A stretch of 64,000 nt of DNA from Candidatus Bathyarchaeota archaeon (GCA_963811105.1 CAWEPZ010000011.1:1216001-1280000); one strand, 5' to 3'; counted from the first letter of the stretch, positions 2,268-7,171 are shown. The notes: generated from the sequence alone by a model not told the origin. Numbers and translations are program-made.

Positions 2268-2839
2268 CGACAATAGAGGAAACTCGAAGAAGAGCGGAAG
2301 CTGACGCTAAAACCTACGGATATTACCTTACACCTCAACCTGAACTTTTAACTGCGTTCCTTGAAGGACTAAAGACAAATGAAGACCGCTACGGTTACCC
2401 CTTATGCCCGTGTAGGCTTACTTCAGGCAATTTCGAGTATGATCGAGATATAATTTGTCCATGCGACTACCGGGACCCAGATGTAGACCAATATGGAGCT
2501 TGTTATTGCAGACTTTACGTTAACAAACGAGTTTATGAAAGCAAAAGCTTGCCTGAAGTTCCAGAGAGAAGACCCCTCGAGAAACAAGCTAGAGCCTACG
2601 GACCCGAAGCCATAGCTAAACAAACATCAGCCGACGGAATGCAGCCAAAACCGCCAACGTCATCGACACCGGTTCCCCAAGCTGTAAAGCCTGAACCAGT
2701 GGTTAAGAAGAAGCTCTGGTATTGCAAACAATGTGGTTACGTTGTGTTCAGGGAGGATCCACCGTATGTTTGCCCAATATGCAAGGCCAAAAAGGAGTTG
2801 TTTGCTGAAATAAACAGCAGTATTGAATTTAGGGGTTAA
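2264..2839 (+). CDS. Ferredoxin:thioredoxin reductase catalytic domain fused to C-terminal rubredoxin (FDR-like)
   Basis: CPC, CPC, CYC motifs; Pro-rich linker; WYCKQCGY...CPICKA rubredoxin domain. Confidence 0.9.
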   Translation: MTTIEETRRRAEADAKTYGYYLTPQPELLTAFLEGLKTNEDRYGYPLCPCRLTSGNFEYDRDIICPCDYRDPDVDQYGACYCRLYVNKRVYESKSLPEVPERRPLEKQARAYGPEAIAKQTSADGMQPKPPTSSTPVPQAVKPEPVVKKKLWYCKQCGYVVFREDPPYVCPICKAKKELFAEINSSIEFRG

Positions 2840-2846
2840 CAGCGAG

Positions 2847-2996
2847 CTATTGTTGGAGTTCTATCTCGATTTTTTTCCAATCCGATTTTATTCCTTTAAG
2901 AGAGCCTACGGCACCAGTTATGGTTCCGTTTAAGATATTTGACACAAAATCATTTAGTGGAATTTCTTTTCCGTCAACTTTAAGTTTTAAACTCAA
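2847..2996 (-). CDS. Unannotated 49-aa protein resembling the stand-alone C-terminal module of archaeal MobB
   Basis: TTG start after GGTGA RBS; MSLKLKVDGKEIPLNDFVSNILNGTITGAVGSLKGIKSDWKKIEIELQQ. Confidence 0.6.
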   Translation of the reverse strand: MSLKLKVDGKEIPLNDFVSNILNGTITGAVGSLKGIKSDWKKIEIELQQ

Positions 2997-3044
2997 GCTT
3001 ATTCACCATAGGTATTGCTTAGTTGAGGTGAAGAGTAAAAAAGT

Positions 3045-3058
3045 TTGTGCAACCTTAA
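3045..3058. repeat. 14-bp direct repeat copy 1 (TTGTGCAACCTTAA), overlapping stop codon of NuoM-like gene
   Basis: Identical to 4587-4600. Confidence 0.85.
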
Positions 3059-4581
3059 ATGAAGTGCACTGTTCCAATTAAGTTAAGGAACATAGTTGGG
3101 TAAATTCCGACCAATATCACAAGCACGGCAAGTATTATCATGCCTGCCTGCATGAACTTGGGAACATTGAATGTTTTAACTTCAGTTTTCGGTGGACCGA
3201 AGAACACGTTTGAAATGAATCTTAGCGAATAACCCAATGATAATACAGTCGCAACAAGCATAAGAGCAGTTGGAATAATGTAAAAGCTGCCAAACCCGCC
3301 TGTCGCCATTATCACTTGGAAAGCGCCTATAAAAATCAAGACCTCGCTTATGAAGCATGCAAATGGCGGCGTTCCCGCCAAGCTCAACGCGGCTGTTATT
3401 GATGAAGTGGCAGTACCTGGCATTTTCCCTGCTAGTCCGCCCATCTCCCGCATATTTCTGGTAGCAAGTTGACTACTTATGGCTCCCGCAGTAAGGAAGA
3501 ATAATCCTTTGCTAAAGCCATGAGTTATCACTTGAAGTACTGTTCCGTTTATTGCCATTGAAACTGGCGCTCCATTGGAGATAGTAAAGAAAAGAGAAAA
3601 GCCAAACATGATATAGCCCATATGGGAAATGCTCGAGTAAGCCATTATTTTTTTGATGTCCGTTTCCCTCAACGCAAGGAAGGAGCCGAAAAACGCTGAA
3701 ATAACCCCTAAAATGCTTAATCCATACAGGAAGTCGGCTGCAAAAGCCGCACTGTTAGCTACAAGCGCTGGCAGAACAACGCCAAGTGAGATTCTTATAA
3801 CGGCATAGGCCCCTGCGCTGGTCAAGACTCCGGCTAACAGGGCGGACATTGGAGCGGGTGCTTCCGTGTAAGCATCAGGTAGCCAAGAGTGCAGGGGTAC
3901 GATTGCCATTTTAACGGCGAATCCAGCGGTCACTGCAATAAGTACCCATTTGACGATATCAACATTAGCGGACCCAAGCAATGTCGCAGCTTTAAACATG
4001 TCTAAGCTGCCGGTGAGCATGAAGATGCCTCCAATACCTAAAATGATAAACACAGCACCTGCATGGGTATAAATAAAGAATTTGAAGGCAGCTTTGTAGG
4101 ATTCTTTGTGCCCCCAGTTACCCAATATAAAGTATGCTGGAACGATCATGAGTTCCCAGAAGAAATAAAACAACAGCAGGTTCTGGGCTATGAAAACACC
4201 TACTAAGCCCACAGTTAGAAGCGCCATCAATGCGTAATAAGTTGGCAGGTTCTTTTTACCTTCCATATAGTTTATAGAGAAAACTACCGCCGCTAAAATT
4301 ATGACCAAAGTCATTATTACCATGGATAAGCTTATCCCATCAACAAAAAGTGTGAATTGAGTGTTTAATACTACTGGAATCCATTCATAAGACTCTTGAT
4401 ACATATTATGATTAGCACTGTTAAGGACGGCTGGAACGGTGGTCAAAATTAGTGTTAAATCTACCATAGCAATTATCGCTATAGCGAGTGCCGCCATTCG
4501 TGCGGATTTCTTTCCTGCTAAGTAAACGAATGGAAAGCCTAAAGCAGGTATTAACAGCGCTGCAAGGAGAGTATATCCCAT
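3055..4581 (-). CDS. nuoM: Complex I subunit M / Mrp antiporter-like proton-translocating membrane protein
   Basis: FFWELM, KFFIYT, VKMAIVPLHSWLPDAYTEAPAPMSALLAG, AYSSISHMG motifs; about 14 TM segments. Confidence 0.85.
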   Translation of the reverse strand: MGYTLLAALLIPALGFPFVYLAGKKSARMAALAIAIIAMVDLTLILTTVPAVLNSANHNMYQESYEWIPVVLNTQFTLFVDGISLSMVIMTLVIILAAVVFSINYMEGKKNLPTYYALMALLTVGLVGVFIAQNLLLFYFFWELMIVPAYFILGNWGHKESYKAAFKFFIYTHAGAVFIILGIGGIFMLTGSLDMFKAATLLGSANVDIVKWVLIAVTAGFAVKMAIVPLHSWLPDAYTEAPAPMSALLAGVLTSAGAYAVIRISLGVVLPALVANSAAFAADFLYGLSILGVISAFFGSFLALRETDIKKIMAYSSISHMGYIMFGFSLFFTISNGAPVSMAINGTVLQVITHGFSKGLFFLTAGAISSQLATRNMREMGGLAGKMPGTATSSITAALSLAGTPPFACFISEVLIFIGAFQVIMATGGFGSFYIIPTALMLVATVLSLGYSLRFISNVFFGPPKTEVKTFNVPKFMQAGMIILAVLVILVGIYPTMFLNLIGTVHFI

Positions 4582-4586
4582 TTTGC

Positions 4587-4600
4587 TTGTGCAACCTTAA
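4587..4600. repeat. 14-bp direct repeat copy 2 (TTGTGCAACCTTAA), in RBS region of NuoM-like gene
   Basis: Identical to 3045-3058. Confidence 0.85.
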
Positions 4601-4668
4601 TCCCATTTGGACGTTTCTTCAATAAAAAACTATAGGAAGTCTTTAATGTTTCTTTTCATTGGCTTTTA

Positions 4669-4785
4669 CTAGTTAGTTGTAATATTTTGATTTCTCTTTT
4701 TTCTTGCAAGTACATACTCAACAAACGAGAAAGATAACGAGCCTACTCCTGCAACGCCTGCAAGAACAATACTAAAGTCAATCAT
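4669..4785 (-). CDS. Unannotated 38-aa single-TM micropeptide A
   Basis: AGGAGG RBS then ATG; MIDFSIVLAGVAGVGSLSFSFVEYVLARKKRNQNITTN; paralogous to 4958-5086. Confidence 0.7.
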   Translation of the reverse strand: MIDFSIVLAGVAGVGSLSFSFVEYVLARKKRNQNITTN

Positions 4786-4957
4786 CGCTTCGCCTCCTAA
4801 TGGTCATTCTATTTTTTTTAATTCTTCAATGCAAAACAGCTCATTCCATATAAGGTTATTTGAGAAAAATTCACAATTCATGTTGAAACTCAACGTTTGT
4901 TTCATCCAAAAAAGGGAATAAGAGAAGAACCTTGTTGACTACAAACCTTTTTTCTCT

Positions 4958-5086
4958 TCACGGTTTGGATACTGAGCAGACTCCCCTTCTTCTCCTCGTT
5001 ACAGCATATTCAGCAAATGATACAATTAAAGAGCCAGCGCCAAAAGCACTCACAACAAGTATTGTTGTATCTATCACGCATATCAT
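4958..5086 (-). CDS. Unannotated 39-42-aa single-TM micropeptide B
   Basis: (MIC)VIDTTILVVSAFGAGSLIVSFAEYAVTRRRRGVCSVSKP; GGAG upstream; ATG 5086 or GTG 5077; paralogous to 4669-4785. Confidence 0.65.
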   Translation of the reverse strand: MICVIDTTILVVSAFGAGSLIVSFAEYAVTRRRRGVCSVSKP

Positions 5087-5148
5087 CTCCATTAATTTTG
5101 CCTTATCAGCAAACGCGTTGATGAAAATATAAATATAATTGAGATTTG

Positions 5149-5165
5149 TTCATAAAAATTATGAA
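5149..5165. promoter_or_regulatory. Inverted repeat TTCATAA-AAA-TTATGAA upstream of micropeptide B
   Basis: Perfect 7-bp arms, but AT-rich context. Confidence 0.35.
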
Positions 5166-5215
5166 TTATTAGATAAACAATTTGATAAATAGCAAAATAA
5201 TTAACAAATTACAGT

Positions 5216-5782
5216 TTAAAGTTTAGATGCAACTGGTTTAAAAATTACTCTGAGCTTAGTCAAATTCTCTTTTATCTCCGCTTTAACGCCCATGGCTGCA
5301 AAGTATTCTTCAAGAAATATTCTGATGAAGTCTTTAGAAGTCTCAGAAACCAAAACTAAGGTGTAGTCGTTTGGGGTGTTCTTTGTTAGCCGGTAAAAGT
5401 TGCACATCTCAAGTCTGTTCAGCAATTCTTCAGTTGAATGTACCTTTGTTTTAAGCTGTTCCCAGTGAGCTCGGGCAACTTCTTTATGCTCGCTCCAAAA
5501 CTTTTCACGCTCAGGAGACGTAGCGATTAACCGTAAGAACATTAGCCAGTGGTCAACGTCAAGGATAATGTGTTCGCCGTTAAGAAGCATATCTAGGTAA
5601 GCGTGTATCTTTTTCCTGGTTGCAGGATCTTCGAGAGCCTTATTTTCACTGTAAAATTTTAAGGCGCGTCGCATGATTTCGCTTTGTGATACTTGCCCTT
5701 CAGTGCTTATTTTTTCCAGTAAGTCGGCTGTTGTTTTGTCGAATGCGACTGTTACTCTTGTAGGGTTCACCATAATAAACAC
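5216..5782 (-). CDS. CopG/ribbon-helix-helix regulator with C-terminal putative ligand-binding domain
   Basis: RVTVAFD...SQSEIMRRALKFY RHH signature; HIILDVDHW and CNFY in C-terminal domain. Confidence 0.8.
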   Translation of the reverse strand: MFIMVNPTRVTVAFDKTTADLLEKISTEGQVSQSEIMRRALKFYSENKALEDPATRKKIHAYLDMLLNGEHIILDVDHWLMFLRLIATSPEREKFWSEHKEVARAHWEQLKTKVHSTEELLNRLEMCNFYRLTKNTPNDYTLVLVSETSKDFIRIFLEEYFAAMGVKAEIKENLTKLRVIFKPVASKL

Positions 5783-5800
5783 TTTACCCTAATTCAACAC

Positions 5801-5820
5801 ATTTCCAAGCTATAGGAAAT
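5801..5820. promoter_or_regulatory. Palindrome ATTTCC-N8-GGAAAT beside TATA box of RHH gene; CTATAGGAA shared with NuoM promoter (4630-4638)
   Basis: Read directly from sequence. Confidence 0.45.
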
Positions 5821-5978
5821 TATATAAGCATTACGCACAACAAACAAAGAAAAAGATTGCAAATTTAAAGTAATTCACGGATTTTATATACAAATGTTAA
5901 ACGTTAACTAACCCAGTTAAACTTTTATTTCTAGTTATACTTACTCATTTCATGACGACTTTCCTAGGAGAAACACGG

Positions 5979-6638
5979 ATGAAAAAGCCGGAAATATATC
6001 TTGAACCCAAACAAAGGGCCGCAAAAGTAATCGAACTCCTTGAAAAAGAGTACCCCGACGCGAAAACTGCACTTAACTATACCAACCCCCTTGAAATATT
6101 GGTAGCCACGATGCTTTCTGCTCAAACAACCGACGAGAGAGTCAATATAGTTACAAAAAATCTTTTTAAGAAATATCACAAGCCTGAAGATTATGCCAAC
6201 GCAGACATAAAAGAGTTGGAACAAGATATACGGTCCACCGGCTTCTACCATAACAAAGCCAGAAATCTACAAAGATGCTGTCAACTTCTTGTAGATAAGT
6301 ATCACTCTCAGGTGCCTAAAACAATGGAGGAACTGATTGAGCTTCCTGGAGTCGCAAGGAAAACCGCTAATATTGTCTTAGACAATGCTTTCGGCGTAAT
6401 TGCGGGCATTGCAGTGGATACTCATGTGCGAAGGCTTTCACTGAGGCTTGGACTTACTGTGTATGATGATCCTGCTAAAATAGAATCAGAATTAATGGAA
6501 ATAATTCCTAAAGAGAAATGGATGAAACTGACTGACCTGCTGATTTTTCACGGCAGGCAAGTGTGCATTGCAAGAAGGCCCAAATGCGAAACATGCGTGC
6601 TAAATAAGATTTGTCCATGTGCTTTTTCTTTTGGCTAG
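5979..6638 (+). CDS. nth: Endonuclease III
   Basis: LSAQTTD, HhH LPGVARKTANIV, VDTHV, C-x6-C-x2-C-x5-C Fe-S motif. Confidence 0.95.
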   Translation: MKKPEIYLEPKQRAAKVIELLEKEYPDAKTALNYTNPLEILVATMLSAQTTDERVNIVTKNLFKKYHKPEDYANADIKELEQDIRSTGFYHNKARNLQRCCQLLVDKYHSQVPKTMEELIELPGVARKTANIVLDNAFGVIAGIAVDTHVRRLSLRLGLTVYDDPAKIESELMEIIPKEKWMKLTDLLIFHGRQVCIARRPKCETCVLNKICPCAFSFG

Positions 6639-6691
6639 AAACAGCAGCAATTTATATACCCTCCAGCTTCTAGAAATTGAGGACTAATCTT

Positions 6692-7171
6692 ATGTCAGCT
6701 AAAATTAAAGTCGGAGACACGTCACCAGACTTCACATTACCCGACACCGAAATGAAAATCAGAAGCTTAAAAGAATTTTTGGGGCAAAAAATCGTTTTGG
6801 CATTTATTGTTGGAGCATTCACCACAACTTGCACAAAAGAAATGTGTGAATTCCGTGATTCTATGGCTAGGCTTACCGATTTGAAGGCTCAAGTTATCGG
6901 AGTAAGTGTCAATGACCCTTTCAGCAACAAAGCTTTTTCAGAAAAAAACAGGCTACCTTTTCCAGTACTTAGCGATTACAAACGCGAAGTCATCAAAACT
7001 TACGGATTAGAAAATCCCAATTTTTCAGGTCTTAACGGTTATACGGTTGCTAAACGTTCGATTTTTATCTTGGATTCAAAAGGCGTGGTTCGGTATGTTT
7101 GGGTTTCTGATGATCCCTCGGTTGAACCAAACTATCAGGAAATTCAAAAAGCTCTAGAACAAATCACTTAA
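6692..7171 (+). CDS. Peroxiredoxin, BCP/PrxQ type
   Basis: [11 protein letters not shown] (Cp-x4-Cr), KRSIFILD; the usual Pro of PxxxTxxC is replaced by Val. Confidence 0.9.

Follow-up and report, generated by a model that had tools for sequence, protein, structure and literature searches.

Two very short minus-strand genes, pepA and pepB, were found in a 64,000-nucleotide (nt) stretch of DNA from Candidatus Bathyarchaeota archaeon (GCA_963811105.1 CAWEPZ010000011.1:1216001-1280000; called the window in the following, with positions counted from its first letter). They lie between a gene for an RHH-domain protein and a stand-alone paralogue of nuoM, all on the same strand. Their products belong to a family of predicted single-span membrane micro-proteins in Bathyarchaeia that is absent from curated libraries. 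We lean toward the reading that both are genuine micro-protein genes, each with its own transcription unit, and that the membrane partner of their products is not tied to the nuoM paralogue next to them. Small membrane proteins are under-annotated in general, and uncultured archaea have so far yielded very few of them.

Two paralogous peptide genes and their family

The window was compared with 79 loci fetched around relatives of its NuoM, one genome per species, using the best 80 of 495 confirmed relatives in 185,579 species genomes. The isolated setting of nuoM recurs in 4 of the 79 loci (L071, L001, L002, and L012), where NuoM is 96, 83, 75, and 74% identical, respectively, to that of the window. 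These four, which are 4 of the best 80 relatives, and the window are referred to as the solo clade; the remaining 75 loci are nuoL-nuoM-nuoN clusters or contig ends. An earlier prediction from the bare DNA (the original prediction) had placed two minus-strand open reading frames (ORFs), both below the usual gene-calling cut-offs and one of them (pepA) equipped with a ribosome-binding site, between the RHH gene and a NuoM-like gene of the same orientation. Both are indeed there, each with a ribosome-binding motif:

4669..4785, minus strand: pepA, a gene for a 38-amino-acid, predicted single-span membrane micro-protein with an ATG start; the A-type paralogue
4793..4798, minus strand: AGGAGG ribosome-binding motif, 7 nt 5′ of the pepA ATG; the surrounding block is conserved in L071 and L001
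4958..5077, minus strand: pepB, the B-type paralogue, 39 amino acids from the GTG at 5077
5087..5090, minus strand: GGAG ribosome-binding motif, 9 nt 5′ of that GTG; AGGAGG stands at the matching site in L002 and L012

The open frame of pepB extends farther (4958-5092, minus strand) and would give 44 amino acids from the ATG at 5092. A start at the position of GTG 5077 is found in the orthologues (L071, L002, and L012) and in the wider family, with M-I-D-T-T at the N-terminus (e.g., P0002).

The two peptides align without a gap, as had been noticed at the outset (BLASTP, 13 identities and 20 positives over 32 positions; pairwise E 2e-8). When the 1,905 six-frame segments that run from stop to stop over 20 or more amino acids in the window were searched with pepA (phmmer), pepB was the only significant match (E 9.3e-5; the next at 0.39), and the peptide motif given in the original prediction occurs at these two sites only across all six frames. 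At the DNA level, the two genes differ at many third codon positions, and the flanks of the two copies cannot be aligned. Thus, they go back to an old duplication and not to a recent repeat. The best 19-residue Kyte-Doolittle windows average 1.92 (pepA) and 1.95 (pepB), and this hydropathy fits the predicted architecture of one transmembrane helix followed by a basic tail in both peptides.

Orthologues occupy the same chromosomal spot in three of the four related genomes (both genes in L071 and L002, pepB only in L012); all of them share the strand of nuoM and lie in the interval that separates it from the RHH gene. A profile, built from the two peptides, then from 7 and finally from 108 members, was run against 26,561 six-frame segments from the 79 loci and the window, and no peptide match was found there beyond the two of the window and those in L071, L002, and L012. 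Between the window and L002, the proportions of non-synonymous (pN) and synonymous (pS) differences are 0.19 and 0.80 for pepA, and 0.28 and 0.87 for pepB, with synonymous sites saturated in both cases; for pepB of L002 versus L012, the ratio of non-synonymous to synonymous change (omega) is 0.14. The coding blocks align between the window and L002 or L012, and the spacer DNA around them does not. No Rfam RNA family was detected in 2700-6100. Because of the orthologues, this pattern of selection, the aligned frames amid unalignable spacer, and the lack of an Rfam RNA, both frames are regarded as protein-coding, and pepA and pepB are taken as genuine genes under purifying selection that would be translated. 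Conserved frames in relatives and a dN/dS comparison had been named as checks in the original prediction, and both spoke for coding genes.

Searched with a profile, 1.84 billion representative proteins yielded 22 matches at E≤1e-3, 21 of which are 34-87 amino acids long; the remaining match, P0009 (732 amino acids), was hit seven times, at the positions of the basic tail only. When a 21-sequence alignment was used in a word-index search of 90%-identity clusters, 102 proteins were recovered at E≤1 and 100 at E≤1e-3, all between 34 and 89 amino acids long. With the two peptides of the window alone as query, the same kind of search matched nothing but the window's own pepA. That protein is already in public protein sets (P0001), where it and its relatives are unnamed or "hypothetical", and pepB of the window was not found in the public protein set; pepA is therefore not fully hidden, as the original prediction had it. 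Named family members are mostly annotated as "hypothetical protein", and one comes from a metagenome-assembled genome (MAG) of Bathyarchaeia, the only source name that gives an organism.

Conservation in the family is specific to positions. Among 108 aligned members, G13 is present in 105, G15 in 97, S16 in 106, L17 in 107, F21 in 101, and Y24 in 105, and positions 28-30 are R or K. From two sequences, a conserved Glu-Tyr had been proposed: the tyrosine is indeed nearly invariant, but the residue before it, at position 23, is K in 72 members, E in 24, and N in 8. Within the helix, 58 of the 108 have E at position 10, which covaries with position 23 (E10 with K23, 58; non-E10 with E23, 24; non-E10 with K23, 14; E10 with E23, 0). 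In other words, the mid-helix glutamate is always accompanied by K23 (58/58), and E23 never by E10 (0/24). This covariation might reflect contact with a partner, or an oligomer. Lysine at position 23 occurs in none of the 7 copies from genomes with a solo nuoM.

Neither the two peptides nor 21 family members were matched above the cut-off of any Pfam or NCBIfam model; the best sub-threshold matches were DUF5504 (0.09), COX14 (0.0044), and MS_channel_1st (0.0062). Membership in DUF5504 was rejected, as the score was 13 bits against a cut-off of 27. An origin of the peptides as remnants of NuoK, NuoJ, NuoA, or the last NuoL helix was equally rejected: no profile match was found in the 75 nuo loci, for which up to 6 kilobases (kb) upstream of nuoM were included. 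A literature search retrieved no publication on these genes, nor one covering both Bathyarchaeia and NuoM. Given its ∼100 sequence clusters, a helix motif that hardly varies, and the pair of covarying charges, the family can be named and modelled, and it offers a concrete target for metaproteomes from peat and fen.

Probable transcription units and linkage to nuoM

The spacer between the RHH gene and nuoM contains the following elements besides the two genes and their ribosome-binding motifs:

5149..5165, no strand: perfect palindrome TTCATAA-N3-TTATGAA upstream of pepB, a candidate operator
5124..5138, minus strand: TATA-like block rich in A and T, past the palindrome and before pepB; conserved among the window, L071, L002, and L012
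4908..4913, minus strand: T6 tract ∼45 nt past the pepB stop, terminator-like
4624..4629, minus strand: T6 tract ∼40 nt past the pepA stop and before nuoM, conserved in L071 and L001

Read along the minus strand, the order is RHH stop, palindrome, AT-rich box, GGAG, pepB, T6, a second conserved AT-rich block, AGGAGG, pepA, T6, nuoM, T6, and orf49 (a small gene that is described below). The palindrome is the only copy without mismatch in the window; L071 and L012 have an exact copy at the matching site, and in L002 a single position differs. The palindrome could be occupied by a dimeric DNA-binding protein, most obviously the adjacent RHH protein. The AT-rich block at 5124..5138 would be a promoter element. 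Oligo-T tracts commonly terminate archaeal transcripts. Since each peptide gene has a T6 tract and a ribosome site of its own, an operon with nuoM is not evident, and separate small transcription units, instead of a single operon, appear to be the simplest arrangement. In L002 (∼5472-5555) and L012 (∼5460-5568), a third small ORF of ∼28-35 amino acids, basic and non-hydrophobic, starting with M-[ST]-K-K-L and containing the motif K-T-G-A-G, sits between the promoter-like block and pepB; it is absent from the window and from L071.

A working model can be put together from these features. Each peptide gene would be a unit of its own, made up of an AT-rich promoter-like box, GGAG(G), the ORF, and a T6 tract, and pepB would be regulated from the conserved palindrome, with the adjacent RHH protein as candidate binder. 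The N-terminus of each peptide, 3-5 residues long, would face the outside according to the positive-inside rule; the helix would carry the almost invariant G-x-G-S-L face and place F-x-x-Y at the cytoplasmic interface, followed by the R/K-rich tail. As in other small membrane proteins, the face of small residues would pack against a transmembrane helix of a larger membrane protein, and would in this way stabilise or modulate that partner. The neighbouring nuoM paralogue would be the leading candidate, by adjacency only. KdpF, AcrZ, and MgtS are small membrane-protein modulators of transporters, and KdpF is encoded inside its operon. The peptides resemble these three in having fewer than 50 residues and a single helix, and in the location of their genes, near or together with that of a membrane transport protein; in contrast, their genes have T6 tracts of their own, they are archaeal and unrelated in sequence, and the partner is a candidate only.

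The pattern of loss in the solo clade separates the peptides from NuoM. L001 retains the RHH gene (89% identity), NuoM (83%), and orf49 (82%), but the pepB region and the palindrome are deleted, and what remains of pepA is frame-shifted ahead of the V-E-Y codons, with N, K, R, and D among the residues of the helix. L012 retains pepB (with Asn at position 23), and its pepA is replaced by a non-hydrophobic remnant. Thus, peptides are lost or decayed in two of the five genomes that keep NuoM, RHH, and orf49, which indicates that they are dispensable for whatever NuoM does. Together with the spread of the family, this pattern suggests that the partner is not restricted to the nuoM paralogue. Regulator, peptides, and NuoM had originally been taken as one module of ion or pH homeostasis, a proposal that finds only partial support. 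Their adjacency is real, in the window and in 4 of the 79 loci, but it comes from one narrow clade and so counts as a single observation; the decay in two of five genomes and the T6 tract after each peptide gene speak against the peptides and NuoM acting as one unit.

Several observations weigh against the reading we lean toward. At the short distance between the window and L071, constraint on the peptides is weak or lacking, on very small counts: pepA, in this closest pair, shows 0 synonymous and 4 non-synonymous changes, counts that are tiny, and omega for pepB is 0.38, again from very small counts. The operator and the promoter are read from sequence only. In the ESM Atlas, pepB reaches scores of only 0.81, to unnamed clusters, with recognition under the usual mark. 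The peptides adjoin nuoM in all four genomes in which they are intact, which favours a dedicated role at NuoM (see below). Genomic context covers 7 family members, all from one clade, and the claim that the family is wider than nuoM could be wrong because two different databases are compared in it.

The nuoM paralogue and alternative explanations

The candidate partner by adjacency was characterised along with a short repeat at its borders:

3055..4581, minus strand: stand-alone nuoM paralogue, 508 amino acids (PF00361, E 7e-65; PF00662; TIGR01972)
4587..4600, minus strand: copy 1 of a 14-nt direct repeat (TTAAGGTTGCACAA), 6 nt before the nuoM ATG
3045..3058, minus strand: copy 2 of the repeat, overlapping the nuoM stop codon

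The protein scores 335.6 bits with the NuoM model TIGR01972 (cut-off 263.8), and no species-level "equivalog" model reaches its cut-off; the best match in the PDB is NuoM of E. coli (E 2e-62). In the E. coli protein, E144, K234, K265, H322, H348, and E407 are the charged or histidine residues of the proton path. Five of the six are kept (E143, K224, H320, H354, and E413 correspond to E144, K234, H322, H348, and E407), and Ser255 stands at the position of K265. Of 32 NuoM from Bathyarchaeia, among them operon copies, 29 have serine there.

No second PF00361 gene and no nuo, fpo, or mrp neighbour was detected when 58 of the 69 ORFs of at least 100 amino acids in the 64-kb window were scanned, the other 11 overlapping longer ORFs or running off the window end. 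The same scan gave no DabA/MpsB-type gene. DabB/MpsA-type stand-alone transporters, which are NuoL/MrpD-like, pair with a DabA/MpsB partner gene. The nuoM paralogue shares with them that an antiporter-like subunit is encoded away from a respiratory operon; it differs in that the protein scores as NuoM, its nearest relatives are operon NuoM, and a DabA/MpsB partner is missing among the scanned ORFs.

In the tree, the solo clade has 100% support and a long stem (0.24-0.29), and it groups with the first nuoM copy of the tandem operon in L023 (support 92 in FastTree, 89 in a quick IQ-TREE run). L012, a solo locus, and L018, an operon locus, come from one and the same MAG, which means that the solo nuoM is an extra paralogue. 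Judged from these relationships, it is a lineage-specific paralogue of nuoM from the Fpo-like nuoL-M-N operon of Bathyarchaeia, and not a lone transporter. The original prediction had called it an orphan NuoM-like pump: it does stand without nuo or mrp neighbours in the window, but, being a paralogue of an operon gene that coexists with the operon in one MAG, it is no orphan by descent. In L023 (5668-9078), from a Bathyarchaeial MAG, two nuoM genes stand in tandem within the operon (nuoL-M-M-N); this arrangement is of the 2M type and is the sole tandem form among the 79 loci.

The lateral-helix span of NuoL, encoded immediately before position 6001 of the fetched loci, was measured in 55 intact proteins, and falls into classes of 49-56 residues (45 loci), 76-82 (8 loci), and 101-105 (2 loci). 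Within the middle class, two nuoM genes are present in L023 only. The longest spans belong to L018 (101 residues) and L074 (105). L017, the sister of L018, has 76, and NuoL of L018 contains an internal, diverged duplication of ∼25 residues that is not present in L017. In L049 (1-1861), the 3′ end of a nuoL carries a near-perfect tandem duplication of a ∼25-residue lateral-helix segment, followed by nuoM without nuoN; the MAG to which L049 belongs also holds a second nuoL-M-N locus, L041.

As described in parts of PMC9040806, PMC7300363, and PMC7117926, a 2M complex I with an extra NuoM is known from other organisms. According to passages of PMC9040806, a 26-residue insertion in the lateral helix of NuoL/MrpD2 accompanies the extra NuoM, and in the Chloroflexi operon presented in PMC7117926 (again in part), nuoL-M1-M2-N, the second nuoM is inside the operon. 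The Bathyarchaeial case is similar in having a second nuoM paralogue with five of the six proton-path residues kept, a tandem nuoM-nuoM in the related L023, and a NuoL lateral helix ∼25 residues longer in the one genome in which both loci are seen (L012/L018). In contrast, nuoM of the window is unlinked and lies between the RHH gene and redox genes, and the host complex would be the Bathyarchaeial Fpo-like complex, which passages of PMC7886697 describe as devoid of NuoEFG. That the solo NuoM is an extra subunit thus finds some support; the evidence from the helix covers one genome pair (L018/L017).

Three length classes of NuoL, ∼25 residues apart, and the co-occurrence of an unlinked nuoM paralogue with the second-longest helix (101 residues) suggest that the number of pump subunits varies in the Fpo-like complex of these globally abundant, energy-limited archaea. 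For bioenergetics, this side result may matter more than the peptides.

If the solo NuoM does join the membrane arm, pepA and pepB might be its dedicated accessory subunits. NdhD1 (Nqo13) is the equivalent of NuoM, and NdhF1 (Nqo12) that of NuoL. For the cyanobacterial subunits NdhP and NdhQ, passages of PMC4131877 give masses of less than 5 kDa and one transmembrane helix; they assign NdhP to NDH-1L, locate it in the distal NdhD1/NdhF1 unit, and report that it is required for stable assembly of NDH-1L, and a figure legend in the same paper matches NdhD1 to Nqo13 and NdhF1 to Nqo12. NdhP and NdhQ, with the exchangeable NdhD/NdhF isoforms, would be the best functional analogy for the peptides: they have ∼40 amino acids and one transmembrane helix as well, the N-terminus of NdhP is predicted to be non-cytoplasmic (lumenal), and several antiporter-like isoform pairs, NdhD1/NdhF1 among them, can be exchanged on a common core (PMC4131877, in part).

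By this analogy, the peptides would be single-helix subunits that help the extra NuoM to assemble onto, or to hold, the Fpo-like membrane arm, resulting in a 2M-type complex with one more proton path. All intact peptide genes with known context, from four genomes, are located 87-380 nt upstream of nuoM in the same orientation, as would be expected from such a role, for which NdhP sets a precedent as a single-span peptide in the corresponding distal unit. The conserved catalytic residues of NuoM (E143, K224, H320, H354, and E413) point in the same direction, as does the NuoL span of 101 in L018, from a solo-nuoM MAG, versus 76 in L017 and 49-56 in 45 of the 55 proteins. Still, we consider a dedicated NuoM subunit unlikely. 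Two of five genomes with an intact NuoM have lost the peptides or let them decay, whereas NdhP is needed for stable assembly; pepB, pepA, and nuoM are separated by T6 tracts; the 75 nuoL-M-N loci, L023 included, have no family member in a range of 6 kb; the type to which most of the family belongs is not found beside a solo nuoM; and the linkage, coming from one clade, is one observation. NdhP and NdhQ also differ from the peptides in other ways: no curated family matched the peptides, their hosts are archaeal and non-photosynthetic, and binding to NuoM is hypothetical here.

A bolder version, which we rate as improbable, is that the nuoM paralogue encodes a detachable fourth pump subunit of the Fpo-like complex, kept off the operon, with the peptides as its docking subunits, switched via the RHH protein and the palindrome. 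If true, this would be a regulated change of the H+/e− stoichiometry, a "gear shift" made from one nuoM paralogue and two peptides of 4 kDa, and the archaeal equivalent of what cyanobacteria have in their exchangeable NdhD/NdhF-NdhP/NdhQ modules.

The peptides could also have nothing to do with NuoM and be membrane-active stress peptides under RHH control that act on the membrane or on a sensor, similar to type I toxins or to regulators such as MgtS and MgrB. Their size, the one hydrophobic helix, and the basic C-terminal tail would suit such a role, and so would the promoter- and terminator-like elements of their own, the conserved palindrome adjoining the gene of a DNA-binding protein, the fact that the genes are dispensable in some genomes, and surroundings that suggest redox stress (peroxiredoxin, Grx, FTR-like protein, and disulfide reductase). 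However, the region 2700-6100 contains no known RNA family of the kind collected in Rfam (no toxin or defence library was searched), and the strict helix-packing motif in combination with a fixed chromosomal position is more typical of subunit-like small proteins, which makes this explanation quite improbable.

Finally, it is highly improbable that pepA and pepB go untranslated, as ORFs that arose by chance in a conserved regulatory spacer: both are shorter than usual gene-calling cut-offs allow, pepB of the window is absent from the public protein set, and the 0 synonymous to 4 non-synonymous changes of pepA relative to L071 would fit, but amino acids are conserved despite saturated synonymous sites, ∼100 related predicted proteins share position-specific conservation, the flanks are unalignable where the coding parts align, and the ribosome sites are at the right distance.

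The 14-nt repeat that brackets nuoM occurs in two exact copies in the window, where chance would yield 0.07. In L071, both copies carry a single mismatch each, and the repeat is unrecognisable in L002 and L012. It could be the scar of an insertion or a chance match.

The RHH gene, orf49, and the redox surroundings

Two further genes frame the peptides and nuoM:

5216..5773, minus strand: RHH-domain gene, 185 amino acids from the ATG at 5773 (the ORF list gives a GTG at 5782)
2847..2996, minus strand: orf49, a soluble small protein of 49 amino acids, 58 nt 3′ of nuoM

The RHH domain (RHH_1, PF01402) was recognised at residues 9-44 (E 9e-6; 25.9 bits, cut-off 20.5), and most of 32 aligned relatives start with M-V-N-P-T-R. 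The protein collection contains 814 relatives, the best 120 of them 82-90% identical, and the RHH protein is far more widespread and better conserved than the NuoM paralogue. A homologue apparently lies on the contig of the operon locus L052, from a genome without a solo-clade nuoM among the best 80 hits. Given the number and identity of its relatives, this is a widespread Bathyarchaeial gene, so the role of a module-specific regulator, in which the original prediction had cast it, had to be given up. The C-terminal 140 residues had no family match in the library scan. The AlphaFold2 model of the protein has a mean pLDDT of 69.5 and found only weak Bet3- or H-NOX-type matches with Foldseek (TM-scores 0.22-0.44), and in the ESM Atlas the C-terminal part matched unnamed archaeal clusters only (0.80-0.88).

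Orthologues of orf49 are present in L001 (7562-7714), L002 (7523-7699), L012 (7552-7716), and L071 (7582-7734), with 71-96% identity. Being kept in five of five genomes, orf49 accompanies nuoM more steadily than the peptides do. It has a sub-threshold NCBIfam match to the C-terminus of PRK14494, a MobB/FeS-domain protein (E 7e-10); no sequence match was found in the PDB, and the AlphaFold2 model (pLDDT 63) was too poor for a fold search.

The nuoM of L071 (5986-7526) and the RHH gene of L012 (4705-5348) are each split into two overlapping frames, and many similar frame breaks are seen in other loci (e.g., L031, L055, L069, and L079). They probably reflect assembly or sequencing indels, not biology.

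The solo-clade loci are flanked by genes for peroxiredoxin and endonuclease III on one side and for an FTR-like protein, Grx, and a disulfide reductase on the other. In the window, these thiol/redox surroundings (526-2839 and 5952-7171, both plus strand) are syntenic with those of the four related loci, and comprise a pyridine-nucleotide disulfide oxidoreductase, a glutaredoxin-like protein, a homologue of the FTR catalytic chain fused to a rubredoxin-like domain, endonuclease III, and peroxiredoxin.

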